Assembly: GCA_964598335.1 (NCBI GenBank)
Contig: CAZRBL010000011.1
Coordinates: 1,634 to 65,633, forward strand
DNA length: 64,000 nucleotides
Source: an uncultured Rhodospirillales bacterium
Lineage (GTDB): Bacteria; Pseudomonadota; Alphaproteobacteria; CAZRBL01
Reading direction: 5' to 3'
Below are positions 13,987 through 59,338 of this stretch, in pieces. The number at the start of each line of letters is the position of its first letter. Positions within the stretch are counted from its first letter, which is position 1. The translations under genes were made by a program, and so were the position numbers. Under the pieces are notes generated by a model that was given only the letters and a program-made list of their open reading frames with translations, was not told where the DNA came from and ran no database searches.

Positions 13987-14751
13987 ATGCTCAACATACC
14001 CCATTTGCCGAATTTCGCAAGGGGCGGCAGCGCATCCGGTCTTTGCCTTGTTCTGATCATCGCGCTGGCCGCTCCCGCGGCCGGCCAGCATGCGCAACAT
14101 GATCATGATCACGGTCATCATCACGATCATCATCACGGATCCGCCGACGCCGGCGATATCGAGGCGTTTTTCGCCGATGTTGCCGCTCGCCTTCCCGGAA
14201 ATTTCACCAACCAGGCGCAGATCGATGCAGCTGTCGCGGACGGCAATGCCGATGCCGAGAAAGATCGTCGCTTCATGCGTATGACCAAGGTAACGGCGCC
14301 GGCGCTCGGAGAGCATGTCTATTATCTCGAATGGCGCCGCCCGGATGCCGATGGCGCCATCAGCCGCCAGCGGATCTGGAGTTTTCATGCGGATCAGTCA
14401 GGCGCGCCGCGGATGAAATTCTTCACCATTCGCAATCCCGAGCCGCTGGCGGGGCAGCCTGCCGACTCGGCCGTCTTCGCCGGTCTCCGCACGGACGATC
14501 TGATCGGTTATCCGGAAGCCTGTGATGTGAATTGGTATCGGACCGATGACGGCGTCTGGCATGGCCGTATTCCTGCCGGTGCCTGCACCATCGTGACCCA
14601 GCGAACCGGCAGAACGATGACCATCGATGCGCATGTCGAATTGCTGCCGGACCGCTTTCACTATGATGAGGCCGGTACGCTGGACGGCGGCATCGTCGCC
14701 TTTGATGTGCCCCAGACGCTGACACGATTCGAGGCGATGCGCACGGAGTAA
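13987..14751 (+). CDS. CpcT/CpeT-like (T-type bilin lyase fold) exported protein with His-rich segment
   Basis: Signal-like LCLVLIIALAAPAAG, then HAQHDHDHGHHHDHHH, then LPGNFTNQAQ..YYLEW..RQRIWSF..ACDVNW..GACTI pattern of the CpcT family (recalled). Confidence 0.6.
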   Translation: MLNIPHLPNFARGGSASGLCLVLIIALAAPAAGQHAQHDHDHGHHHDHHHGSADAGDIEAFFADVAARLPGNFTNQAQIDAAVADGNADAEKDRRFMRMTKVTAPALGEHVYYLEWRRPDADGAISRQRIWSFHADQSGAPRMKFFTIRNPEPLAGQPADSAVFAGLRTDDLIGYPEACDVNWYRTDDGVWHGRIPAGACTIVTQRTGRTMTIDAHVELLPDRFHYDEAGTLDGGIVAFDVPQTLTRFEAMRTE

Positions 14752-28083: not shown

Positions 28084-28172
28084 TGGTGCGGCCGAGAAGA
28101 CTCGAACTTCCACGGGATTTAACTCCCACAGCGACCTCAACGCTGCGCGTCTACCAATTCCGCCACGGCCGC
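28084..28172 (-). tRNA. tRNA-Leu (anticodon GAG)
   Basis: Minus strand GCGGCCGTGGCGGAATTGGTAGACGCG-CAGCG-TTGAGGT-CGCTG...GTTCGAGTC..CGGCCGCACCA; long variable arm; encoded CCA. Confidence 0.96.
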
Positions 28173-28289: not shown

Positions 28290-29483
28290 ATGTCAAAGCT
28301 TCGCACCGGCCTGCTTTTCTGCGCCGCGCTTGCTGTCCCCACGCTCTCGACCCTGGCTGCGGCGAGCGAGACGCTCGTCTCCCGCGGCGGCCGCATCCCG
28401 GTAGTGAGCGGCGTTGAGATCGTTACCCAGGCGACGGGGCTTGAGCGTCCCTGGGCGATTGCCTGGCTGCCCGATGGGCGCGCCGTCATCACCCAGAAGA
28501 AGGGCAGTCTGCGCCTGCTCAATCAGGACGGAACCCTTGATCCGGCTGAAATCGCGTTTCCTGTCGCGGTCACCGGGGGCGGTGAATCCTGGGGGCAGGG
28601 CGGTTTGCTGGATGTCGCGCTGCATCCGGACTACGCGGAAAACGGCTGGCTGTATTTCACCTATTCGACGGGTGATCCATCCGCCAATCGCACGGCGGTC
28701 GGTCGGGCTCGGCTCGAGGATGGTGCGCTGACCGGATTTGAGGAAATCTGGGAAAATCCGGATGACAAGCGCAGCGGCGCCCATTTCGGCTCGCGGCTGC
28801 TGTTTCTGGACGACGGCAGCCTGTTGGTCAGCATCGGTGATGGCGGTAATCCGCCGATTATGTTCGACGGCGACGAGATCCGGAAACAGGCGCAGAATCC
28901 TGCTACCGCATTCGGCAGCGTTATCCGGCTGAACGATGACGGCAGCGTGCCCGAAGACAATCCCTTCGCCGGCGATGAGGAGGTTCTGGCCGAGATGTGG
29001 AGCTTTGGTCACCGAAACATTCAGGGCATGGCGATCGACCCGGAGACCGGGGCGATCTGGGCCAATGAGCATGGCGCTGGCGGCGGCGACGAGTTGAACC
29101 GGCTCGAGGCCGGCAAGAATTATGGCTGGCCCGCCGTCACCTTTGCCCGCAATTATCGCGACGGGTCGCTGATCGCAGATGCCATCGACGGTCCCGAATT
29201 CACGGCGCCGACCGTCGTCTGGCTCGACACCAACGCACCCTCGGGCCTGCTGGTCTATCGCGGCGAGGCCTTTGCCGATTGGGACGGCATGATCCTGTCC
29301 GGCGGTCTGGTGACACAGGATTTGCGCCTGATATCGCTGGCCGAAGACGGCGGTCGCCCGAGCGAGCAGCGGCTGCCGATCGGCCACCGCGTGCGCGATG
29401 TCCGCCTCGGCCCGGACGGTCAGCTTTATGTGCTCACCGATGGTGAGGAGGCGCGGCTGCTCCGCCTGACACCGGCTCCCTAA
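28290..29483 (+). CDS. PQQ-dependent sugar/sorbosone dehydrogenase (beta-propeller)
   Basis: Signal peptide; GLERPWAIAWLPDG, HFGSRL, SFGHRNIQG, EHG..GGDELN, NYGWP, RVRDV. Confidence 0.92.
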   Translation: MSKLRTGLLFCAALAVPTLSTLAAASETLVSRGGRIPVVSGVEIVTQATGLERPWAIAWLPDGRAVITQKKGSLRLLNQDGTLDPAEIAFPVAVTGGGESWGQGGLLDVALHPDYAENGWLYFTYSTGDPSANRTAVGRARLEDGALTGFEEIWENPDDKRSGAHFGSRLLFLDDGSLLVSIGDGGNPPIMFDGDEIRKQAQNPATAFGSVIRLNDDGSVPEDNPFAGDEEVLAEMWSFGHRNIQGMAIDPETGAIWANEHGAGGGDELNRLEAGKNYGWPAVTFARNYRDGSLIADAIDGPEFTAPTVVWLDTNAPSGLLVYRGEAFADWDGMILSGGLVTQDLRLISLAEDGGRPSEQRLPIGHRVRDVRLGPDGQLYVLTDGEEARLLRLTPAP

Positions 29484-30880
29484 TGCGATAACGAGGGAGA
29501 ACGGGCGCGCAGCTTCGCGAGAAGGCTAGCGAGCGCCGGGATCAGCAATAACGGTAAAGTCGCCGGTGCGGGGATTGCCGGGATGACATATTCCAGCGTG
29601 ACAGAGGCTGATGCCCCGGCGCGGTCGGTGACGGTGATGTCGATCAGATAGCTCTGATTGCCGCGGCCGCCGAAGATCGCGAGAATCGTCTCGTCGTCCA
29701 GCGTGCCGCCGACATTCTGGAAAACATCGGTCGAAGCCGGGTCGGTGACTCCCTCGAGAAGGGTGTGCACAACCTCCCCGTCATCATAGGTCACCGCCCA
29801 GCTCAGCTGCTCGAATCCCTCGAGCTCGGCATTGGCCAGCATGTCATATTCGGTGAAGGTGGCGCCGATTGAGCGCGTGCGCGGTGGTTGCAGAGGCGGC
29901 GCGAAGAGAGGCGGGAATGGCGCCGAGTTCTGATAGAAGGCGGTCGTCCGTGCCTGTGCGGTGTCGGCGCTGCTCAGCCCCTCGGCATCCGTTGCGGTCA
30001 GCCGCCACTCGACCTCGGCATCGGTATCGCTTGCATCAAGCCGCGGTCGCGTGATGCCGGAGGAGGCGAGGGTGATCAGACCGTCCGGACCCGGCTGCGC
30101 GGTGAAATCGATCGGCGGGTAGCCGGGCGATTGCAGCGCGGCGCCGTCGCTGACCCGCGTCCAGCTATAGCCGGTTATGTCGCCATTGGGGTCGCTCGCA
30201 CTGCCGTCTACTGAAGCGGTGAGGTTGAAGGCATCGAATGGCTGATTGATGCTGGCGGTCGAAACAGTGGGCGGCGTTTGAGAAATGACGCCGGTCAGCG
30301 TCAGGCTCACACTGTTCAGGCGCGCATCGTCCGAATAAGACATCCGCATATCCCCGATGCCGGTCGTGCCATAGGACAGATCATTAAAGCTGCCGAAGAA
30401 TTCAGCCAGAATTTCAGCGCTGGTGAAACCGGCATCGCCGCTGCCGAGGATTGATTCATTGTTCCAATCCGCCGCCTGCCGGACTTGACCGGTGCGCAGT
30501 TGGGGAGCGCTTGAATTCACATCGCTATGCGTGATCCTGACGGCATCGCCGGTCAGATAGTTCTGGCTGCCTGCGAATCTGTCCATCGAGAAACTGGCGC
30601 CGGTAATGACGTCCACGGCAAGAAATTGCGCATAATTCGGATCATTCTTGAAATCGAAGATCCACCGCGTGCAGTCATTGACGCCGTCTACCGAGCCGCC
30701 CTGGCTCCCTCCGCAAATGTTTGAGCCGGATTCGTTCAGACGGTCTCGCTGCGCGATGCCCGTATTCGTGACGCGCTGGGTTAGGCTTGCCGTCACCGAG
30801 ACTGTCGTCGCCTGCGCTGCAATGGTCGCACCGACCGACATCCAGATTACCGCAAAAAGCGCGATGGCTGCTCGTGCCAT
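29480..30880 (-). CDS. Secreted protein with PKD-like domains and PEP-CTERM/VPLPA-like sorting tail
   Basis: Signal peptide; SASDPNGDITGYSW..LTATDAEG; ends IPAPATLPLLLIPALASLLAKLRARS. Confidence 0.7.
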   Translation of the reverse strand: MARAAIALFAVIWMSVGATIAAQATTVSVTASLTQRVTNTGIAQRDRLNESGSNICGGSQGGSVDGVNDCTRWIFDFKNDPNYAQFLAVDVITGASFSMDRFAGSQNYLTGDAVRITHSDVNSSAPQLRTGQVRQAADWNNESILGSGDAGFTSAEILAEFFGSFNDLSYGTTGIGDMRMSYSDDARLNSVSLTLTGVISQTPPTVSTASINQPFDAFNLTASVDGSASDPNGDITGYSWTRVSDGAALQSPGYPPIDFTAQPGPDGLITLASSGITRPRLDASDTDAEVEWRLTATDAEGLSSADTAQARTTAFYQNSAPFPPLFAPPLQPPRTRSIGATFTEYDMLANAELEGFEQLSWAVTYDDGEVVHTLLEGVTDPASTDVFQNVGGTLDDETILAIFGGRGNQSYLIDITVTDRAGASASVTLEYVIPAIPAPATLPLLLIPALASLLAKLRARSPSLSH

Positions 30881-31021
30881 GGAAACTCCCCGATCCTCAG
30901 GCTTAACGTCCATGTAATAGCTTACGCTTGGGCAATTGTCTCCTGCTTTTAATGCTATTGGTCGGCGTCACTATCGCCGCTATAGGCTGCCTCACGCTCG
31001 ATCCCCCCAGAACCGGCCGTT

Positions 31022-34774: not shown

Positions 34775-35548
34775 ATGAGCATTCTCTATCACTGGGCGGC
34801 CCTGATGCTGAAAGAACGGCAATTGGTGGCACGTTTCGATCCGGGCGCGGATATCGACGATCTTGCCGCCGTTACCGGCTCGGCCTCCGACCCCGGCGCC
34901 GATCTGAAGTCGGTTCGCGGCATGAATGCCGATCTGGTCGACGGCCTGCTTGATATCCGGCTTGAGCGCGCGAATACCGCCAAAGCCCTGTTGATGAAGA
35001 GCGAAGATGCCGCGCCGGCCTCGCATTTCGCGCTGGTCGACAGGGACCCGACCCTGCGTAATGCGCTGCTGAATGATGTCAACTACGCGGATCGCCGGGC
35101 CAAGTCCGGCATCCCGCATGAGGCGGCGCAGGATTATATTGCGCTCTCGGCGGCGGTTTATCCGACGGCCTGGTTCCCCGATTATACCTCCGGCGCACTG
35201 TCCGTGCTGGCAGAGAATGAGAAGGTCATGGCCGGGTTTGCCGCCTATGACCCTGAAACGGCGATGGAGCTGGCGGATTTCGTGGCTGAGCAAAGCGATC
35301 GTTCGGCGCTTGAGAATCTGCCGGCCGATCTCCGCGCCGAACGTTTTGTCGAGGCGCATCGCCGGATCCGCGATGCCTGGGATGCCGAGGATTTACCGGC
35401 CGAATGGATGAACCGCGGCAAGACCATGTTCGAGGCGATCGATAAGGCGCTCAGCCTTGTTGCCGGGCCCGATGGCGGTAAGCCCAAGGCGACGGTTCGG
35501 CCCAAGCCGTCCTCCGATAAGACGGTCGGGCCGCCTCCCAGCCCCTGA
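34775..35548 (+). CDS. Hypothetical all-alpha protein with Pro/Lys-rich tail
   Basis: 257-aa ORF filling the gap after gyrB; ends KPKATVRPKPSSDKTVGPPPSP. Confidence 0.65.
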   Translation: MSILYHWAALMLKERQLVARFDPGADIDDLAAVTGSASDPGADLKSVRGMNADLVDGLLDIRLERANTAKALLMKSEDAAPASHFALVDRDPTLRNALLNDVNYADRRAKSGIPHEAAQDYIALSAAVYPTAWFPDYTSGALSVLAENEKVMAGFAAYDPETAMELADFVAEQSDRSALENLPADLRAERFVEAHRRIRDAWDAEDLPAEWMNRGKTMFEAIDKALSLVAGPDGGKPKATVRPKPSSDKTVGPPPSP

Positions 35549-35575: not shown

Positions 35576-35905
35576 GTGATGCTGCCGGCTGTCCCGCCAG
35601 AAGCGCTGCGCTGCCTGCATGCTCTGTTTCGCGGCGGCCTCGGTTCATCGCCGAGTCTGGATCTGTTCCATCACTGTGAACAGGTTTTCATCGATATCGG
35701 TATCTATGATGAGCGAACGATGACCGCCGCCGTCGCCCGCTATCTTGCCATGGGCACGGTGATCGAGGAGCTGGCGCCCGATATCGGCGGCGATCCGGAA
35801 ACGCATGAATGGATGCTGGTCATCGCCGCCAGCCAGCCGCTGGTCGGCGGTGTCGGATCGCTGCGCTTCGATGCCGACGCCTTTCGCCGGGCGATGGGGC
35901 TGTGA
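35576..35905 (+). CDS. Hypothetical protein
   Basis: 109-aa ORF filling the space between neighbouring genes; no recognised motif; weak RBS. Confidence 0.45.
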   Translation: MMLPAVPPEALRCLHALFRGGLGSSPSLDLFHHCEQVFIDIGIYDERTMTAAVARYLAMGTVIEELAPDIGGDPETHEWMLVIAASQPLVGGVGSLRFDADAFRRAMGL

Positions 35906-35911
35906 ATCCGC

Positions 35912-36625
35912 TTACGATTGCCGCGGTCTTCGCAAGCCCGCGATTACCTTTAACAGCGCCGTTGGTATCAGTAGCCAAGCCCCAATCGCTGGTATGGCGG
36001 CGGCCTTAACCGTGAAGCGGAAATTGTCTAGGCCGACCACGCCGCTGCTCTCATCCGGGCTGAAGAATGTCAGTGACGCCGTCGAAACACCGGCCTGATT
36101 GACGGTTTGCGTGCCGGTAGTATCGCGCGTTTCAATCAGCGCGACGCTATTAACAAGGATCCCATCCTGATCGGCAAGCGACAGCGTCCCGCTCTCACCA
36201 TTCGTTCCGCCGTCGAGGTCATGGATATCGAAGTCGATCAGGGTCACCGGGCGGCTGAAATCGATATCGAGGGCCAGCCCGCTGGGGCTATTCTCGAAAA
36301 AGGTTTCGATCAGCGGTTCCTGCTCGCTGCAGCAGAAACTGAAACCGTCGGTGTTGATCCGAAATGTTTGTTGGCCGCTCAGAGCGCTGTCATCGGCTAT
36401 GAGGCTGAAATCGACTTGCGTCAGTAGCCGCCCTTGAGGATCGCGGATACTGAAGGAAAGCGGCCCGGCATAGCCGGACGTATAGCTTTGATCGAAGCCG
36501 ATGGCTGCTTCGAACAGCCCGCCGCCAATGGGTGTGGCGGAGACATCAAATATGAGCGCAGAGGCAGAGAGGGGAGGTATCATGAACCCCATCACTGCGA
36601 ACAGAATTATTGAAATGTTCCTCAC
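35912..36625 (-). CDS. Secreted protein with IPTL/PEP-CTERM-like sorting tail
   Basis: Signal peptide ending SASA; GGAGG RBS; ends AIPAIGAWLLIPTALLKVIAGLRRPRQS. Confidence 0.68.
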   Translation of the reverse strand: MRNISIILFAVMGFMIPPLSASALIFDVSATPIGGGLFEAAIGFDQSYTSGYAGPLSFSIRDPQGRLLTQVDFSLIADDSALSGQQTFRINTDGFSFCCSEQEPLIETFFENSPSGLALDIDFSRPVTLIDFDIHDLDGGTNGESGTLSLADQDGILVNSVALIETRDTTGTQTVNQAGVSTASLTFFSPDESSGVVGLDNFRFTVKAAAIPAIGAWLLIPTALLKVIAGLRRPRQS

Positions 36626-36713: not shown

Positions 36714-38702
36714 TTAACCCGGCGGTGCGGCCTCTTCGCTCAACATCGACAGCGCCCGGTTCAGAGGCATGACCTCCTGCGCCTTGCCGCCCAGGCGGCG
36801 GATGGCGACGGTGCCTTCCTCCGCTTCGCGGCCGCCGACGACGAGGATCGCCGGCACCTTGGCGAGAGAGTGCTCGCGGACCTTGTAATTGATCTTCTCA
36901 TTGCGCAGATCGGTCTCGACGCGGAGACCTGCCGCCTTCGCCGCTTCGGCGACCTGTTCGGCATAGCCATCGGCGGCTTCGGTGATCGTCGCGACGACCG
37001 CCTGGGTCGGTGCCAGCCATAAGGGCAACCGGCCGCCGGTGCTTTCGATCAGCACGCCGATAAAGCGTTCGAAACTGCCGAACACCGCGCGATGGATCAT
37101 CACCGGGCGATGGCGGCCTCCATCCTCGCCGATATAGGCGGCATCAAGGCGTTCGGGCAGCACGAAATCGAGTTGGCAAGTGCCCATCTGCCAGGATCGG
37201 CCGATCGCATCGCGCAGATGAAATTCGTATTTCGGCCCGTAAAAGGCGCCTTCGCCGGGTGCATAGGCAAAATCCAGCCCAAGGTCATGCAGGGCATCGG
37301 CCATGGCTTTTTCCGCACGGTCCCAAACCGAATCCTCGCCTGCGCGGGTTTCCGGTCGGGTGGCGAGCAGGATCCTGATATCGTCAAAGCCGAAATCTGC
37401 ATAGACACGGTTGAACAGATTGATGAAGCCTTTGACCTCCTCGCGGATCTGGTCTTCGCGGCAGAAGATGTGTGCGTCATCCTGGGTCATCTGCCGCACA
37501 CGCATCAGCCCGTGCAGCGCGCCATGTGCCTCATTGCGATGGCAGCAACCCATCTCGGCCATCCGCAGCGGCAGATCACGATAGCTCTTGATGCCTTGTT
37601 TGAAGATTTGCACATGCGCCGGGCAATTCATCGGTTTGATCGCCATCAGACGGCCTTCGCCGCTGAACACCGGGCCGTCATCCTCGGAACTCGGTACCTC
37701 ATCGGGGACGACGAACATGTTCTCGCGGAATTTCCCCCAATGGCCTGACGCTTCCCACAGCTTGTTGTCGATCAGCTGCGGGGTTTTCACCTCGACATAG
37801 CCATCGGCATAGATCTGCCGCCGGATATAGGCCTCGAGCTGATTGTAGATCGTGAAACCCTTGGGATGCCAATACACGCTGCCCATCGCGGTTTCGTCGA
37901 GATGGAACAGATCCATTTCCTTGCCGAGCTTGCGGTGATCCCGCTTCTCGGCCTCCTCCAGCATCGTCAGATAGGCCTTGAGCTCCTTATCGTCGCGCCA
38001 GGCGGTGCCGTAAATCCGATGCAGCATGGCGTTGCGGTGATCGCCTCGCCAATAGGCGCCCGCCACCTTCATCAATTTGAACGCATTGCCGATCTTACCG
38101 GTGCTCGGCAGATGGGGGCCGGCGCACAAATCGTACCAGCCGCCCTGACGATAGACGGAAATCTCCGCATCCGCGTCGAAGCTCTCGATCAATTCGGCTT
38201 TGTAGTGCTCGCCAATCTGCCTGAAATGCGCGATCGCCTCGTCGCGATCCCAAACCTCCCGCGTGAAGGGTTCGTTGCGCGCGATAATCTCGCGCATTTT
38301 CTTCTCGATGGCGGCAAGATCATCGGTCGAGAAAGGCTCATTCCGCGCGAAGTCGTAATAGAACCCGTTTTCGATTGCCGGGCCGATCGTCACCTGTGTG
38401 CCGGGATAGAGTTCCTGCACGGCCTCGGCCATGACATGCGCTGCGTCATGGCGGATCAGCTCTAACGCCTCGTCATCATCCTTGGTCACAATGGACACGG
38501 ACGCATCCTGGCGAATAGGCAAAGTCAGATCTTGGACCTTGCCGTCGATCTTCGCGGCCAGCGCTTTCTTCGCCAGGCTCTTGGAAATCGATTCGGCGAT
38601 TTCCAGACCGGTGACCGGCGCCGTGTATTGCCGGACGGAGCCGTCGGGTAAGGTGACTGAGATGTCGCGCTCTACATTCACGGCTGCGGAATCGGGGCTC
38701 AT
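36714..38702 (-). CDS. thrS: Threonine--tRNA ligase
   Basis: TGS domain, [37 protein letters not shown]. Confidence 0.98.
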
Positions 38703-38828: not shown

Positions 38829-39122
38829 ATGTCGAGATTCACCCTACAAGGTCCACAGAAGGCGGTCAGCGAAGACGGCGTGATCGTCGCCTTCGCCGGA
38901 CGTCATGGCCTGCTTTACGAAACCGGCGGCTATCGTTTGACCGTCCCCTGCGAATCGGGCCGCCGGGAAAACGGCGAGGCCGGGATCATCGCCTATGTCT
39001 CGGGCGTCACCAGCTGGGACCAGCCCGCGGGCGGCGCGCTCGACGAGGCGGATCGGCGGAAACTGGCGGCCGATCTGACCGCTGCTGTGACCGAAATGGG
39101 AGGCTGGTGTGATGTCGCCTGA
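38829..39122 (+). CDS. Imm74-like immunity protein
   Basis: AGRHGLLYETGG.RLTV..E...GIIAYVSGVTSWD.P...LDEADRRKL matches my recollection of the Imm74 pattern (GR.GL.Y.E...I.SE..IY..SI..WD.P). Confidence 0.6.
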   Translation: MSRFTLQGPQKAVSEDGVIVAFAGRHGLLYETGGYRLTVPCESGRRENGEAGIIAYVSGVTSWDQPAGGALDEADRRKLAADLTAAVTEMGGWCDVA

Positions 39123-39906
39123 TCAGATGCCGGAAAACCCTGTGGCCAAGGCGCTGTTCATGATTGAGCATACCGCCGCTCTGCAGGGCTGGCTGCATGG
39201 CCCGCGCGCGCAGAAAACGGCTGAAGCGCTGTCGCAGGAGCCTTATTTCGACGATCTTGTCGACCTGTTCCTGGCGCGTCGCAGCGACAGTCCGCCGGAT
39301 ACCGAAACCATCGCCAGGCTGTCCCACACCGTCGCGCAATACGGCGCGATGGATATTCCGGCCGACAGCCTGGTCTATTTCTCGGGTCCGGAGATCAAGA
39401 CGGCAGAGGCGCATGCGGCGCGCGATCCGTCGATTTCCGTAATCCACGGTACGGCAGCCGGGGCGGCTCTCGAGATCATGCAATTGTTCAGCGACCCGCT
39501 CGATCCCGATGCCGGCGGTCCGATTCCCTTCGCCATCGGCACCGCAATGTGGGATCTCGCTTCCGAACGCACCGCGCTGGAGACGCCGCCCGGGCATATC
39601 CGCGTCTATGTTAATCCGGAAATCGGCTCGCACCCCGACAGCACTTTCCGTTCCGTCGAATTGCCGGCCCTTCTGGCCCGGGAGGATTCATCCCGTTTCT
39701 CGCTCAGCCTGATCAGGGTGGATAAGCAAAGCGGCGAAGAGCTGGTTGAGACGCGGCCTTTGGAGCAATGGCTCGATTATAGCCGCACGCGAATGTCCGG
39801 CATGGCCAGCCGCCAGGGCGTCTCGATCAAACCGGACGGCACGGTCGAGTTCTCAATGAACAAGCCGACGGTGGGCGGTGCAGGGAGTGTTTCCCCCAGC
39901 CCGTGA
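39112..39906 (+). CDS. ADP-ribosyl cyclase/CD38-like (Tox-ARC-like) NAD+ glycohydrolase candidate
   Basis: Ordered motifs VYFSG...MWDLASERTA...GHIRVYV...PDSTFRSVELPALL; overlaps the immunity-like gene. Confidence 0.6.
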   Translation: MSPDQMPENPVAKALFMIEHTAALQGWLHGPRAQKTAEALSQEPYFDDLVDLFLARRSDSPPDTETIARLSHTVAQYGAMDIPADSLVYFSGPEIKTAEAHAARDPSISVIHGTAAGAALEIMQLFSDPLDPDAGGPIPFAIGTAMWDLASERTALETPPGHIRVYVNPEIGSHPDSTFRSVELPALLAREDSSRFSLSLIRVDKQSGEELVETRPLEQWLDYSRTRMSGMASRQGVSIKPDGTVEFSMNKPTVGGAGSVSPSP

Positions 39907-39971
39907 TCGGTCGATAAAAATCTTCGCCCGCGCTATTGCGTGAAATTTTACACTTATGTTACAAAACGGAT

Positions 39972-40322
39972 ATGGCTGAAGCGAAACAACTTGTCCGTGC
40001 TGCGGACCACTTGATCGAGCCCCACGCCGACGATCAATCCGGGCCGGATATCGGCGATTTTGCCCATGCGCCGAATCGCGAAGGGCTGCTCTTGCGTCTG
40101 TTCGGTTGCACCCCGCGCTATGGCCGGCCGGAGATCCGGGCGCTGTATCAGGAAGTGGATCAGGAGGATCCCCTGGCCGTTTATGATTACTGTCGTTCAC
40201 AGGGGGTTGAGGTGCTTACCGATCAGGGTGAGCCGGTCCCGCCCTGGCGTGACATCGCCGTCATGCTGAAAGCTCGCGCACAGGGCCTCGATCCGTCGGC
40301 ACCTGCCGACAATGCTGCCTAA
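39972..40322 (+). CDS. Hypothetical 116-aa protein
   Basis: Clean ORF ending 15 bp before the HAD gene; no recognised family. Confidence 0.6.
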   Translation: MAEAKQLVRAADHLIEPHADDQSGPDIGDFAHAPNREGLLLRLFGCTPRYGRPEIRALYQEVDQEDPLAVYDYCRSQGVEVLTDQGEPVPPWRDIAVMLKARAQGLDPSAPADNAA

Positions 40323-40337
40323 TCGGGATACCGGGAC

Positions 40338-41714
40338 ATGGAAATCGCCTCACCGCTCGCTGTTCGCGCCTCCAGCAAGGATGTCGATAACAACATCCTC
40401 AATTATTTCGACAAATGGCGCGAACGCTCGACCAAGGCCTGGGATGGGCTGATGGCGCTATACAATCCTGCCGTCACCGAACAGGTGGTGCCGTCGCTGC
40501 TGCCGCAAATCGCCAGGGGCAACGCCGGGGCCAAGCGCATGCTGCAAAGCATTTTCGATGCCGATCTCGACGTCCTGTCATGGTCTGTTCGAATCGGTGA
40601 TGCCGCGGCGGAACCTGAGCCATATCTGCTCAGCGGCGTTCATACACTCGCCGGCAACGACGTCGTCGGGCCGATGCTGCAGTTTCTTGAGACCGTCAAG
40701 AACGGCGGCGACAACAATGCGATCAATATCGCCGAAGCCGGTTTCCGCAACGCTGCGAGCGCACGCTTTGAAGACCTTCTCGACAAGGCGGCAGCGGGCA
40801 GTAAAGAAGCCACCGAAGAAGTTCAGAACCTGATGAAGCTGGACCTTCTCAAGGTCGGTAAGGAAGCGATCCGCAATAATTATGGCGGCTTTCACAGCCT
40901 GCAGACACTGATCGAGGAAGCGCCGGCACTGGCCCGCCGCCGTGCCGCCATCGAATACACCTGGGATCATCATCCCGAAACCGCCCGGACCCGCGGCCTT
41001 CTGCTCGGCAATGAGCGTGAACTGATCATGGATTTCCGCGCCGAGCGGGATGAGAGCTGCAAGCTCTGGCCCGGCGGCCATGAGGCGATTGCCATGGTCG
41101 CAGAGGCTGGCGGCGTCAATTTCATCGACACCGATGCACGCTTCGAAGATCTGGCCGAGCGGCTTTTTCTGGCGGGCGTCCAGCTCGACCAGATCGACGG
41201 CGTTGTCTGCAAGCGCGACGTCAAGGGGGTCGATCCTGTCCGCAACCCGCCGCTGGACGGTGACAGTGCGATGTCGCGTTTTCGCCGCGCCCTGTTCGAT
41301 AAATGCTACGGCTTTACCGATGACAGCAAGGGCACGCAGGCCAGGGCTGATCTCGGGATTGCGATGTGGAAAAGTCACGGGCTCGAACCGCATGAGGTGG
41401 CGCATTCGGGCGACAGCTACAAGGACGGGATCCACGCCAAGCTGGCCGGGGCGCATTACCTGATGAACGTCAAGGGCGCCGATGTGGAGCCCGCGACGAC
41501 CCGGCTGATGAACATCGTCAAGCCGACCTATCCGCTCGGCCTTGAGATCGCCAATCAGAAGCTTGCGGAGGCCGGCGTTGAGGTCGGCCGCTATCTGGTC
41601 AACGGCATGGAGGATTTCCCCAAGGCCGTGACGATCATGCCGCGCCCGCCGGCGCCCGGCGCCAAGCGCTCGGTCAAGGCCGATATCGCGCCGAATTCGC
41701 CCAGTCCGGTTTAG
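40338..41714 (+). CDS. HAD-superfamily hydrolase with very large cap insertion
   Basis: Motif I DVDNN (residues 15-19), LWPGGHEAI..FIDTD (motif II), SKG (motif III), EVAHSGDSYKDG..A..AG (motif IV). Confidence 0.65.
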   Translation: MEIASPLAVRASSKDVDNNILNYFDKWRERSTKAWDGLMALYNPAVTEQVVPSLLPQIARGNAGAKRMLQSIFDADLDVLSWSVRIGDAAAEPEPYLLSGVHTLAGNDVVGPMLQFLETVKNGGDNNAINIAEAGFRNAASARFEDLLDKAAAGSKEATEEVQNLMKLDLLKVGKEAIRNNYGGFHSLQTLIEEAPALARRRAAIEYTWDHHPETARTRGLLLGNERELIMDFRAERDESCKLWPGGHEAIAMVAEAGGVNFIDTDARFEDLAERLFLAGVQLDQIDGVVCKRDVKGVDPVRNPPLDGDSAMSRFRRALFDKCYGFTDDSKGTQARADLGIAMWKSHGLEPHEVAHSGDSYKDGIHAKLAGAHYLMNVKGADVEPATTRLMNIVKPTYPLGLEIANQKLAEAGVEVGRYLVNGMEDFPKAVTIMPRPPAPGAKRSVKADIAPNSPSPV

Positions 41715-41726
41715 GAGGCATCGCCC

Positions 41727-42881
41727 ATGCCGCACGTTACATTCGCCGGAAACAGCCCCAGCTCGATTCCAATTTCCGACCGCTTTACCGCCGGCCTACT
41801 CGACAGCGACGATTTTGCCCTGCGTGACAGCAAACGCGAACTGGCCGCCGATGCCGTTGTGGTCATCGATCCGGACAGCGCCAGCAGCTATTTTCATGCC
41901 GCGCTGGTGGTCGAGAAAATCATCGATCCGAATTTCAAGAACACCCCGATTATCTATCAGGTGGCCGAGGGTGCGCCGAAGCCGAAAGCCTTTGAACTGC
42001 TCGAGCACCTCAAGGCGAATGGTGTTCTGGGCCAAACCGCCGAGGATTTCTTCGAGATCGCGCATGACGAGACGGATGTGCTGCGCATTCTGCATCAGCA
42101 CCTTGATCAAGGCGGCCCGGCCAAGGCTGATACGCCGCCGCAAAGCCGCGATATCGGCCCGGCCGAGCAAAAGGTGATGGACGACATCAATCAGCGCGGC
42201 GCCGACAAGGAAGAGGGCGAGTTCAAGATCGCCGTCTTCATGTCGGCCTCGACCAAGGACCCCGAAAAGCTCGCCCTGGCCCGCACCCTGGGCAATATGG
42301 TCGGCGAGGCCGGCTGGTCGGCGGTGTATGGCGCCAGCAATGTCGGCGCGATGAATGAATTCGGCAAAGGCGTGCATGAAAGCGGCGGGCATCTGTCCGG
42401 CGTCACCGTGCCCTGGCTGCTTGGCCAGCTGATCCCCGGCGCCGTCGATCCGACCGGTCGTGGCGGCGAAAAGCTCGACGCTGACGGCCTCAACCGCCTC
42501 GATGCTCTGGCGGTGGTCGAAGACACCAAGGTGCGGGTCAAGGACCAGCTGAAAATGTCCGACGCGCTGGTCGTGCTCGAGGGCGGCATCGGCACCTTCG
42601 AGGAACTCGCCTATGTCCTCGAGCTCAAACGCGCCGAGCCCGAGACCTATGGCGACAAGGCGGTGGTCATCGTCAACCGCGACGGTTTCTGGGATCCCGC
42701 CATCGAGATGCTGAAGGCCGACGGCTTTGACCCGAAAACCGACTTCGTCAGCGTCACCGATGAGGCGGGCCTGAAAGCCGCCCTGATCGACCATGCCGAC
42801 GCCATGGGCAAACCGACCCGACCCGCCTTCGAGAACGCCCCGGCGCGCAAGTCCCCCGGGCCGGATCTGTCGCCGAGCTGA
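41727..42881 (+). CDS. LOG/SLOG-family nucleotide phosphoribohydrolase with degenerate N-terminal LOG-like domain
   Basis: C-half VYGASNVGAM, RVK..L..SDALVVLEGGIGTFEEL, VIVNRDGFWDP. N-half ADAVVV..NTPIIY..FELLEHLKANG looks like a decayed copy. Confidence 0.8.
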   Translation: MPHVTFAGNSPSSIPISDRFTAGLLDSDDFALRDSKRELAADAVVVIDPDSASSYFHAALVVEKIIDPNFKNTPIIYQVAEGAPKPKAFELLEHLKANGVLGQTAEDFFEIAHDETDVLRILHQHLDQGGPAKADTPPQSRDIGPAEQKVMDDINQRGADKEEGEFKIAVFMSASTKDPEKLALARTLGNMVGEAGWSAVYGASNVGAMNEFGKGVHESGGHLSGVTVPWLLGQLIPGAVDPTGRGGEKLDADGLNRLDALAVVEDTKVRVKDQLKMSDALVVLEGGIGTFEELAYVLELKRAEPETYGDKAVVIVNRDGFWDPAIEMLKADGFDPKTDFVSVTDEAGLKAALIDHADAMGKPTRPAFENAPARKSPGPDLSPS

Positions 42882-43002
42882 CCATTCACGTCATTGCGAG
42901 CGACCAACGGGAGCGCGGCAATCCAGGAATTTTTCCATCTTGGCGAAACTCCTGGATCGCCGCGTCGCTGTCGATCCTCGCGGTGACGTTAGGTACTGAC
43001 TC

Positions 43003-43737
43003 CTAACGCCACTGACCCGGCGTATTTGGCGTCACCTCCGGCTTCAGACGCATGTCCTCGCCGAACTCGTCGAGCTTGTGGAAGAAGACCGGCTCGGTCG
43101 TGTCGATGGTTTTGATGCGCTCGCGGAAGGCCTCGATCATGCCTTCCCGCACCTCATCAGGCACCCACATCGGGCCGTACATGATATGGGCCGGCAGCAC
43201 GTCGAAGCCGCAGATGGCGAGGATGCCGGCTTGCTGGCTCCAGAGGATACGCTCGATATCGCCATTGCGTCCGTCCGGCTCATAGCCGCTTTTCGGGGTG
43301 CCGGTGACGATCGACAACATCGCCTTCTTGCCCGACAGCATGCCCTGATCCCACCATTGGCCGAGGCCGTAGGCGACGCCATAGGCCAGCACGCGGTCGA
43401 CCCAGCCCTTCATGATGGCGGGCATGCCGAACCACCACATCGGATATTGGAACATGATGAAATCGGCGGCCTTCAGCTTGTCGATCTCGCCCTGAATATC
43501 GGCGGCGAACAAGTCTTTCTCGGCGGCATTGCCCTGCTCGGCGAAAGCGTTGAACTTTTCCGGGTTCAGCCGCTCAGTCACATCATGCGGGCCGAGCACC
43601 GGATTGAAATTCATCGCATAGAGGTCCGAGATCATCACCTCATGGCCCGCCGCTTCAAGCTCTTGCTTGGCGATGTCAACCAGGCCGTGGCACAGCGAGG
43701 TCGGTTCCGGATGGGCGTTGATCAGCAGCGCCTTCAT
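43003..43737 (-). CDS. NAD(P)H:quinone oxidoreductase (flavodoxin-like fold)
   Basis: AHPEPTS, SDLYAMNFNP, QYPMWWFGMPAIMKGWVDRV. Confidence 0.92.
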   Translation of the reverse strand: MKALLINAHPEPTSLCHGLVDIAKQELEAAGHEVMISDLYAMNFNPVLGPHDVTERLNPEKFNAFAEQGNAAEKDLFAADIQGEIDKLKAADFIMFQYPMWWFGMPAIMKGWVDRVLAYGVAYGLGQWWDQGMLSGKKAMLSIVTGTPKSGYEPDGRNGDIERILWSQQAGILAICGFDVLPAHIMYGPMWVPDEVREGMIEAFRERIKTIDTTEPVFFHKLDEFGEDMRLKPEVTPNTPGQWR

Positions 43738-45144: not shown

Positions 45145-45894
45145 TTAGCTTCTCGGAAAACCGGCGCGCTCGGATTTCCCGTCGCCGGCAAGGGCCTGAA
45201 AGATCGCCAGCGCCGCCATGGCGGCGGTCTCGGCCTTGAGGATTCTCGGGCCGAGGCTGACGGCGCGAGAAAACGGCAAGCCGGCCAGAAATGCAAGCTC
45301 ATCCGGATCGAATCCGCCCTCCGGCCCGATCAGCAGCGCGCCCGCTTCGGGGGATTCCTTTTGCAGCGCCTCGGCCAGCGGTACCGCCGGTCCGGCTTCG
45401 GCGCAGACCCACAGCCTGCGGCTGCTTTTCCATTCGTCCAGCGCTGCCGAAAGCTTCACCGGTTCGGCGATTGCCGGCACCGTCAGGCGTTCGCATTGTT
45501 CGGCCGCTTCGATTGCGATCTTGCGCAGCCGGTCGAGATTGACCCGCTCGCTTTGCGTCCGCGCGGTGATGACCGGCAGCAGCCGGCTGACCCCCAGCTC
45601 CGTCGCCTTTTGCACGATCAGATCGGTCTGCGTCCGCTTGATCGGCGCGAACAGCAGCCAGGGCCCTTTCTCTGCTGTCTGCTCGCGGATTTGTGATTCG
45701 CACCGCACCATCCCCGACTTTTTGCCGAGATCAACGATTGAGCCGCGCCATTCACCGTCTCGGCCATTGAACAGGATCACCTCGTCGCCGACCTCGCGCC
45801 GCAGCACATCGCGCAGATAATGCGCCTGATCGGGGTTCAGGCCGACGCTGAGCGTGCTGCCTAAATCATCGTCAACCAACAGACGCGGGATCAT
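45145..45894 (-). CDS. rsmE: 16S rRNA m3U1498 methyltransferase
   Basis: HYLRDVLRR, QKATELGV, EAAEQC, IGPEGGF, LGPRILKAETA. Confidence 0.95.
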   Translation of the reverse strand: MIPRLLVDDDLGSTLSVGLNPDQAHYLRDVLRREVGDEVILFNGRDGEWRGSIVDLGKKSGMVRCESQIREQTAEKGPWLLFAPIKRTQTDLIVQKATELGVSRLLPVITARTQSERVNLDRLRKIAIEAAEQCERLTVPAIAEPVKLSAALDEWKSSRRLWVCAEAGPAVPLAEALQKESPEAGALLIGPEGGFDPDELAFLAGLPFSRAVSLGPRILKAETAAMAALAIFQALAGDGKSERAGFPRS

Positions 45895-46283
45895 TGGCTT
45901 CGGGACTGGGTATTGTCCCGAAGCCATTGCGCGAATTCGGCTTCGGTGAAGTCACCGGCTGCCAGCATCAGCACGGCATGGGTTGCGGTGGCTTCGTCGG
46001 CGATGAGCTGCAGGCCGTTGACCTGAAGAAACAAGGCCGAGACGACAAAGGCAGTGCGTTTATTGCCGTCGACGAAGGGGTGATTGCGGGCAATGCCATA
46101 GGCATAAGAGGCGGCGAGGGCGCAGAGGTCGCCCTCGCCATAGCTGAAGGCGTTGATCGGACGCGCCAGTGCTGATTCAAACAAACCTTCATCGCGCACG
46201 CCGCTACCGCCGCCATGCTGTCGTATTTGATGCTCATGAATCGTGTTGGTGGTGGCGATGGAAATCCACTGCGGCTCGGTCAC
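45891..46283 (-). CDS. Doc/Fic family toxin
   Basis: HPFVDGNKRTA Doc motif; GVRDEGLFESALARP. Confidence 0.92.
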   Translation of the reverse strand: MTEPQWISIATTNTIHEHQIRQHGGGSGVRDEGLFESALARPINAFSYGEGDLCALAASYAYGIARNHPFVDGNKRTAFVVSALFLQVNGLQLIADEATATHAVLMLAAGDFTEAEFAQWLRDNTQSRSQ

Positions 46284-46504
46284 TTCGCCAGCTCACGCAG
46301 AGTGTTCTTGTAGCGCTCCATGATCTCTTCGGCGATTTCCATCTGGCGCGCGAACTCGGCGTCGGTTGGTGACAGATGCAGGCCGTTCTTGGCGCGGGTA
46401 GCGTAAAAGCTGTCGCCCTCGCCGAGCTTCATCTCGTCCAGCAAGTCTTTCGGGATCACAACGCCGAGAGAATTGCCGATTTTGCGGATTTTGAGGGTAG
46501 CCAT
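46280..46504 (-). CDS. AbrB/MazE-type antitoxin
   Basis: KIRKIGNSLGVVIPK swapped-hairpin motif; 4-bp overlap with the doc gene. Confidence 0.9.
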   Translation of the reverse strand: MATLKIRKIGNSLGVVIPKDLLDEMKLGEGDSFYATRAKNGLHLSPTDAEFARQMEIAEEIMERYKNTLRELAK

Positions 46505-51522: not shown

Positions 51523-51624
51523 CGCCGGCGCGCTATACAATAATTCGGGAAATAAAACAGTGTGGTTTTTGGGCAGCCGGACTATATTGCGTCCCGAGTC
51601 GGGTTGAACCATGAGGGACGACGC

Positions 51625-52428
51625 ATGAGCGCTGACCCCGAAGTAACGCGATATCGGACAATTTTCATCTCCGATATCCATCTTGGCACGCGCGGTTGTC
51701 AGGCTGAATTACTGCTTGATTTTCTGCGCTATACCGAGAGTGAATCGCTCTATCTGGTCGGCGATATCGTCGATGGCTGGCGGCTTAAACGCCAATGGTA
51801 CTGGCCGCAGGCGCATAATGACGTGGTGCAGAAACTGCTGCGCAAGGCCCGTAAGGGGACGGACATTATTTACGTGCCGGGCAATCATGACGAAGGATTT
51901 CGGGAATATCTCGGACTCGAATTCGGGCGTATTCGCTTGGAGAATGAATCGATTTTCGAGGCCGCCGACGGTCGAAAATTCCTTGTGCTGCACGGCGACC
52001 AATTCGACATGGTCGTCAACAACGTCAAATGGCTCGCCTTTGTCGGCGATTACGCCTATCGGGCGGCGCTGATCGCCAATACCGCCTTCAACTATGTCCG
52101 CCGCAAGCTCGGCTTCGGCTATTGGTCCCTATCCGCCTATCTTAAGCACAAGGTCAAGAACGCCGTTGCCTATATCGGCACCTATGAAGAGGCGGTCGCC
52201 TCGGAGGCGAGGCGGCGCGGCGTTGACGGCGTGATCTGCGGTCACATCCATCATGCTGAAATGCGCGATTTCGATGAGATCACCTATATCAATGACGGTG
52301 ATTGGGTGGAAAGCTGTACGGCGCTGGTCGAGCATCATGACGGTCGTATGGAAATTCTTCGCTGGGCCGACATCTTTGCAGCGCGCGAAGGACGCAAAAT
52401 CGCTGAATTGCAGCCGGCCGCCGCCTGA
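51625..52428 (+). CDS. PlcP-like metallophosphoesterase (often auto-annotated UDP-2,3-diacylglucosamine hydrolase)
   Basis: ISDIHLG, GDIVDGW, WPQAHNDVVQKLLRKARKG, PGNHDE, HGDQFD, CGHIHH, GDWVESCTAL. Confidence 0.8.
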   Translation: MSADPEVTRYRTIFISDIHLGTRGCQAELLLDFLRYTESESLYLVGDIVDGWRLKRQWYWPQAHNDVVQKLLRKARKGTDIIYVPGNHDEGFREYLGLEFGRIRLENESIFEAADGRKFLVLHGDQFDMVVNNVKWLAFVGDYAYRAALIANTAFNYVRRKLGFGYWSLSAYLKHKVKNAVAYIGTYEEAVASEARRRGVDGVICGHIHHAEMRDFDEITYINDGDWVESCTALVEHHDGRMEILRWADIFAAREGRKIAELQPAAA

Positions 52429-57850: not shown

Positions 57851-58003
57851 GACTGAACTGATCCATAGCCTAATGTGATTGGCGCTGGTGCAGTTGTCGC
57901 GGTTTCCTCTCCGCATGATCGCATGGCACCCAACGAAAAATACTTCGGCCTCAGAGTCGTTCATCGACCCCGGCCGATCCATAACAGATGGAGGCAGAAA
58001 GAG

Positions 58004-59338
58004 ATGGATGAGGATCGCGACTACAACACCGGGGGCTTGTTGACACTTGAAGACAGCCCGATGGAAGAGAGCCATGCTGACGGCTTGATGTCGACGCTGG
58101 TCTATCGAAGTCGCGAAACCCACAAGATGATGCCGCGTGAATTGAGCGGCCTGATCGCCAACGCGCAATCTGCCAATGCAGCGGCCGGCATCACCGGGAT
58201 GGTGATTTATGATCGCGGTCGATTCCTGCAATGGCTTGAGGGACCCGCCTCCTCCGTCAACGCGCTAAGGGCGCGGATCGGTCGCGACAGCCGGCATACG
58301 GATATCGAAGTTCTTACCTGCCTCGACAGCAACACGCATGAGCGCTGCTTCGACGGCTGGAACATGCAACTGGTTCAGCGGGCGGGACAGTTTGACATTG
58401 TCGATCTTTCCCTGCCTGAACCCCCGTCGCTATTGCTCGATTGCCTGCACAAAAATCCCGAAGACCTCGTCGAGCAGCTTCGCTGCTATGCCGGCAATCG
58501 CGATTTAACCGCTGCCGGCCATATTCCCTATGCGGTCAAGATCGATCAGGGCGTCGACCGTCTTGCCGATCTGCGCAGCCTGATGGAAGAGCCCAGAGAT
58601 CTTGACGGATCGGCGTCATCCTGCGGCTGCGTGCAGCACGCGCCGCGGCAATTGCTCGATGCCGGACAGGAATTGGCGCGTGCGCTGCTCTCCGCCAGGG
58701 AGGGAGAGGCCCATGATGCTATCCGGCGGATTTGCGGTCAGACGGCGCATAGCATGCGGGCCGTCGCTCAGCTTTTTGAAATTGCCGCTCGCTCACTGGG
58801 CGACAGCTGGATGCGCGATGAGTGCAGCGAATACGATATCGCCATGGCGATGTGCAATCTTCAGACAACCTTGCGCTCGCTTGCTCCCTGGGCACAGAAT
58901 CGCAATCACCGTCGCGAGGCGGCCTGCGGCTCGGCGCTGATCGCGCCGCTGCCGGGTGAGGTACACATTCTAGGTGCGACCCTCAAATCGGAATTGTTGG
59001 CAAGTGAAGGTTGGGCGACCGAATGCGATTTCCCCGACCGCATTGCCGATCTTGAGGACTCGGTGTCGCGCAATTGGTATGATGTAGCGATTATTGCGCT
59101 CTCGCGCGTTTTCCGCCGCGAAGACAGCCTGTTGCGGGTTGCCGATGCGGTGGCCCGCACGCGCCGCGCGTCCTGCAATCCCAATATCCGCTTGATCGTC
59201 GGCGGCCGGATCTTCGGCGATAACCCGGATGCCCGCGCCCAGGTCGGGGCGGATGCGCGTTGTGCCAGCGCCGGCGATGTAAGCCGAGCGATACGCGAAG
59301 CAATGGCTGCGGTCCCGACGAGCGGTGCCGTGCACTAA
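58004..59338 (+). CDS. AppA-like BLUF + SCHIC/B12-binding-like antirepressor
   Basis: BLUF: LVYRS, N...GITG, FLQWLEG, DSRH, WNM. C-terminal LPGEVHILG domain of the AppA/PpaA type. Confidence 0.82.
   Translation: MDEDRDYNTGGLLTLEDSPMEESHADGLMSTLVYRSRETHKMMPRELSGLIANAQSANAAAGITGMVIYDRGRFLQWLEGPASSVNALRARIGRDSRHTDIEVLTCLDSNTHERCFDGWNMQLVQRAGQFDIVDLSLPEPPSLLLDCLHKNPEDLVEQLRCYAGNRDLTAAGHIPYAVKIDQGVDRLADLRSLMEEPRDLDGSASSCGCVQHAPRQLLDAGQELARALLSAREGEAHDAIRRICGQTAHSMRAVAQLFEIAARSLGDSWMRDECSEYDIAMAMCNLQTTLRSLAPWAQNRNHRREAACGSALIAPLPGEVHILGATLKSELLASEGWATECDFPDRIADLEDSVSRNWYDVAIIALSRVFRREDSLLRVADAVARTRRASCNPNIRLIVGGRIFGDNPDARAQVGADARCASAGDVSRAIREAMAAVPTSGAVH

Follow-up and report, generated by a model that had tools for sequence, protein, structure and literature searches.

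An uncultured Rhodospirillales bacterium (GenBank assembly GCA_964598335.1) carries, on contig CAZRBL010000011.1, five closely spaced plus-strand genes (p1 to p5) that raise the question of whether they form a single system for depleting NAD+ and nucleotides or a set of separable parts. The genes span positions 38829-42881 of the 64-kb stretch of DNA that was analyzed (the window), and all coordinates refer to this stretch unless another genome is named. The original prediction was that they encode an Imm74-like immunity protein, an ADP-ribosyl cyclase (ARC)-like enzyme, an orphan, a HAD hydrolase, and a double LOG phosphoribohydrolase that act as a coordinated arsenal or an anti-phage system. 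The five genes are not one conserved system, since the p1-p2 pair and a p5 homolog occur separately in other genomes. The reading that we favor, with about an even chance of being right, is that p1 and p2 form an Imm74/ARC NADase toxin-immunity pair within a cluster of probably exported, fast-evolving, lineage-specific enzymes.

Central to this reading is p2 (39112-39906, +; ATG at 39112, with a GTG at 39109; 264/265 amino acids). A word-indexed search of 5.8 billion proteins returned only p2 itself. When 1.84 billion cluster representatives were scanned in full with HMMER, 14 matched at E ≤ 1e-3, comprising p2 (P0001) and 13 others. Eleven of these were short proteins (130-280 amino acids) that aligned to residues ~25-195 of p2; the similarity of the two large ones (2,651 and 2,857 amino acids) was confined to short repeated stretches. 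A profile of 12 sequences (p2 and the 11 short homologs; A2) was compared to the PDB and matched an ‘ADP-ribosylcyclase toxin’ (9ro8; E = 2.2e-8), the Aplysia cyclase (E = 2e-4), and CD38 (some thirty entries, E ~2.4e-4), with ARC proteins accounting for 39 of the 42 listed chains. Four of the homologs (P0007, P0014, P0011, and P0008) also matched Pfam Rib_hydrolayse (PF02267), below threshold and at consistent positions. This profile of remote homologs bears out the earlier ARC call and indicates that p2 is an ARC/CD38-fold enzyme, predicted to function as an NAD(P)+ glycohydrolase or cyclase. The p2 family is a very divergent and very rare clade whose members are missed by curated ARC models.

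The ARC domain of p2 comprises residues ~25-195 (39181-39693) and is followed by a 70-amino-acid C-terminal extension that ends KPTVGGAGSVSPSP; this extension (residues 196-265) is partly conserved in the closest homolog, P0005. Because the region of homology starts near residue 25, there is no room for an N-terminal trafficking domain. Near-invariant positions in the family (265-amino-acid numbering) include F91-S92-G93, E122, and W148. In addition, E184, in the motif STFRSVELP, is invariant across the family alignment (A4) and aligns with the catalytic-Glu strand (NVELPRL, RVEVHSL, and KYELPNL) of solved ARC structures; the catalytic Glu is E226 in CD38, E573 in Tac1, and E356 in ARCtox. The spacing of F91/E122/W148/E184 (31, 26, and 36 residues) resembles that of W273/E299/W323/E356 (26, 24, and 33 residues), the active site of a type VI secretion system (T6SS) ARC toxin of Pantoea (PMC12605009).

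The candidate partner of p2 is p1 (38829-39122, +), which encodes an acidic protein of 97 amino acids. Immunity to Tox-ARC toxins is chiefly provided by the Imm74 family (PMC3482391), Escherichia coli exposed to the ARC toxin Tac1 is rescued in part by an Imm74 protein (PMC12356396), and the pairing of the two families is established (PMC3482391, PMC12356396). The p1 protein aligned to positions 13-74 of the 80 in Pfam Imm74 (PF15603; E = 0.04, 14.5 bits) and its ortholog in a second genome to positions 6-78 (E = 0.0077, 16.7 bits), but both scores fall below the gathering cut-off of 27.1 bits and therefore do not place either protein formally in Imm74. A p1 profile yielded nothing significant in the PDB.

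The ortholog in question is a 97-amino-acid gene located directly upstream of the closest p2 homolog in another metagenome-assembled genome (MAG) labeled ‘uncultured Rhodospirillales’ (L084, GCA_964584645.1). Its identity to p1 is 36% (E = 3e-24), and the adjoining ARC copy is 41% identical to p2. In a third genome (L089, GCA_964397055.1), the contig breaks off within a p1-like gene that is 41% identical to p1 and extends into the beginning of the ARC gene. Thus, an Imm74-like gene adjoins or overlaps an ARC gene in three genomes. The L084 pair lies beside an LpxH-like phosphoesterase gene that is 75% identical to the window copy at 51562-52428, which also shows that the chromosomal location of the pair is not the same in L084 as in the window genome. 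When compared to this value, the 36% and 41% identities of p1 and p2 suggest that the pair evolves fast. The conserved pairing with ARC is a stronger argument for the identity of p1 than are the Imm74 scores, and of the earlier Imm74-like call it is the similarity, repeated in the ortholog, and the conserved ARC adjacency that stand, while Pfam-level membership does not. Collectively, these observations are suggestive only of p1 being an Imm74-like candidate immunity protein or antitoxin for p2.

Accordingly to the favored reading, p1 and p2 would be a translationally coupled immunity-toxin pair of the Imm74/ARC (CD38-fold) kind. The two genes overlap by 11 nucleotides (nt), and a GGGAGG motif is positioned 8 nt ahead of the p2 ATG. 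By analogy with Tac1/Tci1 and ARCtox/ARCimm, p2 would cleave the nicotinamide-ribose bond of NAD+ and NADP+ via Glu184, possibly through a cyclic ADP-ribose (cADPR) intermediate, and p1 would block the active-site cleft of p2 in the producer. We infer NADase activity for p2, its neutralization by p1, export, and a target that may be bacterial or eukaryotic.

Several observations weigh against this reading, in addition to the subthreshold Imm74 scores. Taken alone, p2 had no match in Pfam, NCBIfam, PADLOC, or the PDB. The first active-site Trp is Phe91 in the p2 family (FSG is aligned to FWSG of the Aplysia cyclase), and in the hidden Markov model alignment to that cyclase it is His113, not Glu122, that lies opposite the Glu of TLEDTL, although residue spacing favors E122. 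This ambiguity and the Phe at the first Trp position make the product spectrum uncertain. A single-sequence AlphaFold2 (AF2) model of p2 had a predicted local distance difference test score (pLDDT) of 43.2, too poor for a fold search, and the ARC fold was therefore deduced from profile similarity only. No p1-like gene neighbors the ARC homologs in L083 (a 1.65-Mb circular genome, 40% GC), L085/L091, or L086-88 (47% GC). Finally, the immunity-first gene order is typical of toxin-antitoxin (TA) modules and not of polymorphic toxins, and no secretion-system gene was found in the 64-kb window.

The gene order bears directly on an alternative in which p1 and p2 are an intracellular TA or abortive-infection module that is not exported. 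The ARC enzyme, freed on stress or phage attack, would collapse the NAD+ pool of its own cell, and the C-terminal tail of p2 would be irrelevant or a degradation or regulatory tag. Type II TA modules classically have such an overlapping, antitoxin-first order, the genes are fast-evolving, a Doc/Phd TA pair is encoded at a distance of 3 kb, and NADase effectors are common in defense. However, PADLOC-DB models did not match p1 to p5, or the two further genes u1 and u2 described below, at E ≤ 1, and no DNA-binding domain was matched in p1 or its L084 ortholog in Pfam. Searches of plasmids and phages (tblastn) and a scan of viral contigs were likewise empty. An anti-phage role, which had been proposed for the cluster, thus finds no support in the defense-system, phage, or viral searches. 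Moreover, a tail that is common to an unrelated LOG enzyme, p4, u1, and distant homologs would be left unexplained. We therefore consider a non-exported module unlikely.

A second alternative is that the proteins are non-toxic physiological enzymes, with a Nac-like ARC that makes cADPR or ADP-ribose for signaling or salvage, a LOG enzyme of purine or cytokinin metabolism, and p1 as a regulator. Several ARC homologs are located among housekeeping genes with no p1-like neighbor, the window locus has native composition, and AMP-binding and AAA_28 (NadR-kinase-like) genes come after the L089 pair. Bacterial ARC enzymes that are not toxic, such as Nac1, do exist (PMC12356396). Against this stand the retention of an Imm74-like partner with the ARC gene in three genomes, a divergence much faster than that of housekeeping genes, and the extreme rarity of the family (14 matches among the 1.84 billion representatives), which together make a physiological role distinctly improbable. 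The L089 neighborhood (829-3216 of that contig) is an observation in its own right: next in line after the p1-p2-like pair, and in the same orientation, are genes for an AMP-binding enzyme and a protein of AAA_28, the family to which the ribosylnicotinamide kinase domain of NadR belongs, which hints at a link to NAD salvage.

Whether the favored pair belongs to a larger system depends on the organization of the cluster and on p3 to p5. The open reading frame listing and our reading of the sequence confirm the layout first described, namely five packed, co-directional genes that diverge from thrS. The cluster lies between two minus-strand genes, thrS (36714-38702; identified from its translation, a housekeeping neighbor divergent from p1) and a Flavodoxin_2 quinone reductase gene (43003-43737; convergent with p5). 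Past the p1/p2 overlap, the genes are separated by 65, 15, and 12 nt (p2-p3, p3-p4, and p4-p5, respectively). A GGAGG motif precedes p5, and the p3 start is identical on a Logan contig (L081). No terminator-like structure was called within the cluster, including the AT-rich 65-nt spacer between p2 and p3 (39907-39971, +), which also lacks a promoter consensus and has an RNA fold z-score of -0.5. Where p5 and the quinone reductase gene converge, a long hairpin rich in GC (42913-42965, +) is predicted to fold at -40.1 kcal/mol (z = -3.75), with none of 200 shuffled sequences equally stable. The hairpin is likely the end of the transcription unit, and the cluster is probably co-transcribed.

The last gene, p5 (41727-42881, +), encodes a protein of 384 amino acids with the tail ARKSPGPDLSPS. 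A LOG domain at residues 165-332 (42219-42722) follows an N-terminal domain of 160 amino acids. It matched Pfam Lysine_decarbox (PF03641; E = 1.1e-16, 61.7 bits versus a gathering cut-off of 27), LDcluster4 (SLOG cluster 4; E = 1.4e-9), and LOG structures in the PDB (E = 2.6e-10 to 1e-5); TIGR00730 scored 67.6 bits, below its cut-off of 96.35. The Arg of the RK motif is kept, and the other motifs read GASNVGAMN and EGGIGTFEE, with the leading Pro of the latter replaced by Glu. The only relative found with the same architecture (P0004, 50% identity) keeps PGGIGTFEE, and GASNVGAMN is present in both. The LOG call is thus well founded, and p5 is clearly a predicted LOG-family nucleotide phosphoribohydrolase, which would act as an N-glycosidase on nucleoside 5′-monophosphates. 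The suggestion of a double LOG is another matter. The N-terminal domain had no Pfam match at E ≤ 10, and comparison of the N- and C-terminal halves gave a BLASTP E-value of 0.29 and an hhalign E-value of 0.054 (probability 1%). The alignment is not significant and is collinear with only the latter part (second half) of the LOG domain, and the catalytic motif PGGxGTxxE is replaced by DPDSASSYF. It is at best a degenerate LOG half-repeat.

The two remaining genes are orphans. The p3 protein (39972-40322, +; 116 amino acids, acidic with an isoelectric point (pI) of 4.6, and without a tail) had no match in Pfam, NCBIfam, or PADLOC. The p4 protein (40338-41714, +; 458 amino acids, tail KRSVKADIAPNSPSPV) was the only match to itself among 5.8 billion proteins, and no relatives of p3 or p4 were found in genome, homolog-locus, plasmid, or viral searches. 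The assignment of p4 as a HAD hydrolase is at most tentative. A single match to HAD_2 (E = 0.16, 12.5 bits versus a cut-off of 23.8) covers residues 334-375, the motif IV region only, where the C-terminal half has a GDSxxD motif (HSGDSYKD) reminiscent of HAD motif IV. No HAD match was found in NCBIfam or the PDB. A candidate motif I, FDADLD (residues 73-78), sits in a helix predicted at pLDDT 73-84, and the alternative, MDFRAE, lacks the second Asp. The single-sequence AF2 model is not usable as a whole (pLDDT 43.8), with residues 45-170 alone reaching 70-89 as helices; Foldseek with this model gave nothing at E ≤ 0.001 and helical matches without meaning. The N-terminal half, predicted to be helical with moderate confidence, contains three copies of a GNxxGxxxLQ-like motif between residues 57 and 201 (40506-40940; IARGNAGAKRMLQ, LAGNDVVGPMLQ, and IRNNYGGFHSLQTLIEEAPALARR) that weakly resemble TALE-like BurrH repeats (PDB 4cj9; E = 0.034, with no single stretch significant). 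Neither half gave anything significant in the PDB, and a Pfam scan of half-proteins at E ≤ 10 gave nothing. We therefore treat p4 as a putative enzyme or binding protein, and p3 is a possible partner (immunity protein or chaperone) of p4.

These results bear on the alternative that all five genes constitute one NAD+/nucleotide-depletion system, in which ADP-ribose or cADPR would be produced by the ARC enzyme, and these products or other nucleotides would then be irreversibly degraded by the LOG and HAD-like enzymes. The tight packing, the lack of an internal terminator, and the hairpin located only after p5 would all fit such a system, as would the verified ARC and LOG homologies and the tail common to the three enzymes. 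SLOG/LOG domains have also been proposed to cleave the ribosyl-adenine bond in ADP-ribose derivatives (PMC9503650). Yet the p1-p2 pair lies beside unrelated genes in L084 and L089, the p5 ortholog P0004 lies alone beside ctaA/COX15 in its MAG (L082), and p3 and p4 have no homolog, the HAD component being a 12.5-bit match. The synteny comparison across relatives therefore upholds the p1-p2 pair, which recurs, and not the cluster as a whole, and a coordinated arsenal is difficult to reconcile with parts that occur separately. We consider a single five-gene system quite unlikely. Under the favored toxin-immunity reading, the layout would comprise units of a small partner and a tailed enzyme, namely p1-p2, p3-p4, and a further unit across thrS, u1-u2.

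What connects the enzymes is a short Pro/Ser-rich C-terminal tail. The shared tail of p2, p4, and p5 that was first noted is confirmed at the protein level, and a fourth bearer can be added: u1 (34775-35548, +), an orphan of 257 amino acids across thrS with the tail KPKATVRPKPSSDKTVGPPPSP and no match in Pfam, NCBIfam, PADLOC, or the PDB. It is followed after 27 nt by u2 (35576-35905, +), a small acidic orphan of 109 amino acids, such that the two form a further unit of a tailed protein and a small partner on the far side of thrS. The tails end in GAGSVSPSP (p2), APNSPSPV (p4), SPGPDLSPS (p5), and KTVGPPPSP (u1) and are led by a mildly basic sequence that contains KP and is rich in Gly and Pro, in contrast to the acidic bodies of the proteins (pI 4.6-5.2). 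The small partner proteins p1, p3, and u2 lack the tail. No signal peptide and no hydrophobic or membrane segment was detected in the tailed proteins, and all cluster proteins are soluble and acidic. The codons of the tails differ, so the similarity is at the protein level; this rules out a DNA repeat or a miniature inverted-repeat transposable element as its source. An encapsulin or microcompartment cargo peptide was also set aside because the tail lacks GSL-type or amphipathic-helix features.

The frequency of such tails was evaluated with a criterion (at least four of the last six residues Pro or Ser, at least two of them Pro) that was defined post hoc, which tempers the result in favor of our reading. 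By this criterion, 4 of the 50 window genes (p2, p4, p5, and u1, all within 8.1 kb) are tailed versus 8 of 1159 (0.7%) in 80 high-GC alphaproteobacterial control loci (binomial P ~4e-4). Comparable tails are present on orthologs and distant homologs, including those from genomes of 40-47% GC. The p5 ortholog P0004 ends in GPRPVPNP, and distant ARC homologs from unrelated genomes have basic, Gly/Pro-rich ends (RRGPPRP, GGPRPS, GPATRP, and GAGGP). In L086 (5794-10669; also L087 and L088), a run of orphans and an ankyrin-repeat protein adjoin the ARC homolog P0020 and have a different common C-terminal motif (DKAAYRGPANTR, DKPVYKGRPNAR, and KGSRP); the sharing of tails among neighboring orphans is thus found in a second lineage. 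A skeptical view would be that unrelated orphans are juxtaposed by chance and that the tails are a compositional accident of a GC-rich genome, for which speak the post hoc criterion, the ease with which Pro/Ser/Gly-rich ends arise at 62% GC, and the absence of detectable relatives of p3 and p4. The clustering and enrichment of the tails relative to the high-GC controls, their retention despite differing codons, and their presence in genomes of much lower GC content render this view hardly credible.

The simplest reading of a C-terminal feature that is conserved on enzymes otherwise unrelated and devoid of a signal peptide is a signal for sorting or export, and the tail may be an export tag. 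More tentatively, and at well below even confidence, we suggest that the tail (SPSP-type in the window genome and GPxxP/R-type on homologs from other genomes) would be an undescribed C-terminal export or translocation signal of a poorly known group of Alphaproteobacteria, marking a mobile repertoire of effector enzymes that lack signal peptides, with small untagged partner genes guarding the producer and the p2 family as a new ARC toxin clade on this route. The repertoire could comprise the ARC NADase, the LOG N-glycosidase, p4, u1, and possibly two further enzymes of the window. These are a GDPD glycerophosphodiester phosphodiesterase (3235-4050, -) and a DUF6782/M78-like putative metallopeptidase (19984-21156, -), which have weaker KP/Pro-rich ends (EKRPPVNP, AKPKTALAPQPEKRPPVNP, and KDAPQP, QPKPGSKPPPAGPSRRAQDLAKDAPQP, respectively) and may be looser members of the tail class. 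Substrates of VirB/VirD4-type type IV secretion systems (T4SSs) carry C-terminal, positively charged translocation signals. The tails presumably resemble these in being an unstructured basic extreme C-terminus on acidic enzymes that lack signal peptides, a likeness that we take as a lead only; the ankyrin-repeat proteins with similar tails beside the L086 ARC homolog are, we assume, a further T4SS likeness. The window tails differ from T4SS signals in their SPSP or PxP ends and in being only mildly basic, and the window contains no recognized T4SS gene. Of all leads at the locus, the tail is the most novel and the one that best lends itself to testing.

The genomic setting of the cluster is that of the remaining window. 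Its GC content (0.60-0.64) and third-codon-position GC content (0.62-0.79) equal those of the rest of the window (~62% GC overall), and composition and codon usage thus provide no signal of a compositional island. The cluster is not bordered by flanking repeats, mobile-element genes, or a tRNA gene; a single RNA gene was detected in the window, a tRNA-Leu(GAG) (28084-28172, -) that is 10 kb away and does not adjoin the cassette. A genomic island is therefore ruled out on present evidence. Housekeeping genes of the window include pnp, truB, rbfA, infB, uvrB, gyrB, thrS, a gshA-type GCS2 gene, and rsmE, with orphans scattered between them. The best identity of thrS to a GTDB species representative was 68-69% (61-69% across the top 30 of the 80 loci kept), indicating that the organism has no close sequenced relative. 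Cassette homologs were detected at none of these 80 thrS loci, which also have no neighboring genes in common with the window, and synteny consequently cannot be judged through thrS. An exact-sequence look-up of p5 and a scan of GTDB genomes for close relatives gave no match, and a metagenome scan for further relatives added only one locus, of the P0006 type.

Several other features of the window were observed. A Doc (Fic/DOC) toxin and a MazE/Phd-type antitoxin are encoded just downstream of rsmE (45891-46504, -), and a CpeT/CpcT-family protein is encoded at 13867-14751. An AppA-like protein with BLUF and SCHIC domains (57875-59338, +) suggests light/redox regulation as in purple phototrophs. 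Two proteins (35912-36625 and 29480-30913, both -) have a signal-peptide-like N-terminus and a C-terminal hydrophobic helix with a basic cluster (AIPAIGAWLLIPTALLKVIAGLRRPRQS and LPLLLIPALASLLAKLRARSPSLSH), an arrangement that recalls sorting signals of the PEP-CTERM/exosortase type; a weak PKD-like match was also obtained for the second. With its TonB receptors, PEP-CTERM-like proteins, and AppA-like BLUF regulator, the window organism looks free-living. Elsewhere, in the L083 genome (10001-15650), the ARC homolog P0009, several orphans, and a Cu/Zn superoxide dismutase gene are interleaved in an mdh-sucCD-sucAB array. The ankyrin-containing and small-genome contexts of distant ARC homologs are a hint of host association in those lineages.

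Should the tail be an export signal, it would offer a sequence-based means of searching uncultured Alphaproteobacteria for effectors, and a LOG-type nucleotide N-glycosidase would join the candidate secreted nucleotide-targeting enzymes. If it is not, p1-p2 would still be a clean new example of an NADase TA module. To our knowledge, experimental proof of ARC (CD38-fold) NADase toxins came only in 2025, and always for C-terminal modules of polymorphic toxins of the T6SS, the type VII secretion system (T7SS), or contact-dependent inhibition (CDI). Polymorphic toxins (LXG, PAAR, Rhs, VgrG, and CdiA) have a fused N-terminal delivery domain, whereas p2 has none; as was originally noted, no RHS, PAAR, VgrG, or CdiA domain was detected in the cluster in Pfam and NCBIfam scans.

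Among known systems, p1-p2 comes closest to ARCtox/ARCimm, discussed below, and to Tac1/Tci1 of Streptococcus parasanguinis, a T7SSb LXG toxin and its Imm74 immunity protein (PMC12356396). Both pairs comprise an ARC domain with a catalytic Glu and an adjacent small Imm74-type protein, and by analogy the predicted action of p2 is rapid NAD(P)+ hydrolysis. In Tac1, however, the ARC domain forms the C-terminal part of a large LXG protein and the immunity gene is downstream, whereas in p2 the ARC domain stands alone and is followed by a C-terminal tail, and p1 is upstream and overlapping. Similarity between the two ARC domains is detectable only profile-to-sequence, and the p2 host is an alphaproteobacterium, a class absent from the phyletic range of Tox-ARC in a 2012 survey (PMC3482391). 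ARCtox/ARCimm of Pantoea ananatis (PANA_2924/2923; PMC12605009) likewise has a compact bacterial ARC core with similar active-site residue spacing, and 9ro8, the best PDB match of the p2 family profile, is probably this toxin. PANA_2924 differs in having PAAR and transmembrane delivery domains and a T6SS route, where p2 has no delivery domain and no T6SS genes nearby; in having a downstream, non-Imm74 immunity partner; and in having Trp where the p2 family has Phe at the first active-site position.

Nac1, a non-toxic secreted ARC enzyme from Actinophytocola oryzae (PMC12356396), resembles p2 in being a stand-alone ARC outside a polymorphic-toxin scaffold. Nac1 starts with a Sec signal and lacks an immunity gene, in contrast to p2, which has no signal peptide, has p1 as a partner, and keeps a conserved Glu (E122) near the position of an Ala in Nac1. 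Relative to the LOG/PpnN family of cytokinin riboside 5′-monophosphate phosphoribohydrolases and nucleotide 5′-monophosphate nucleosidases, p5 keeps the PF03641 core with the RK Arg and GGxGTxxE, but it has the extra N-terminal domain, a core insertion, GASNVGAMN in place of GGGxxGxMG, and the Pro-rich tail. Collectively, what is new in p1-p2 when compared to known ARC pairs is the stand-alone ARC domain, the upstream and overlapping immunity gene, the substitution of Phe for Trp, a tail in place of an N-terminal delivery domain, the alphaproteobacterial host, and a divergence beyond the reach of curated models.

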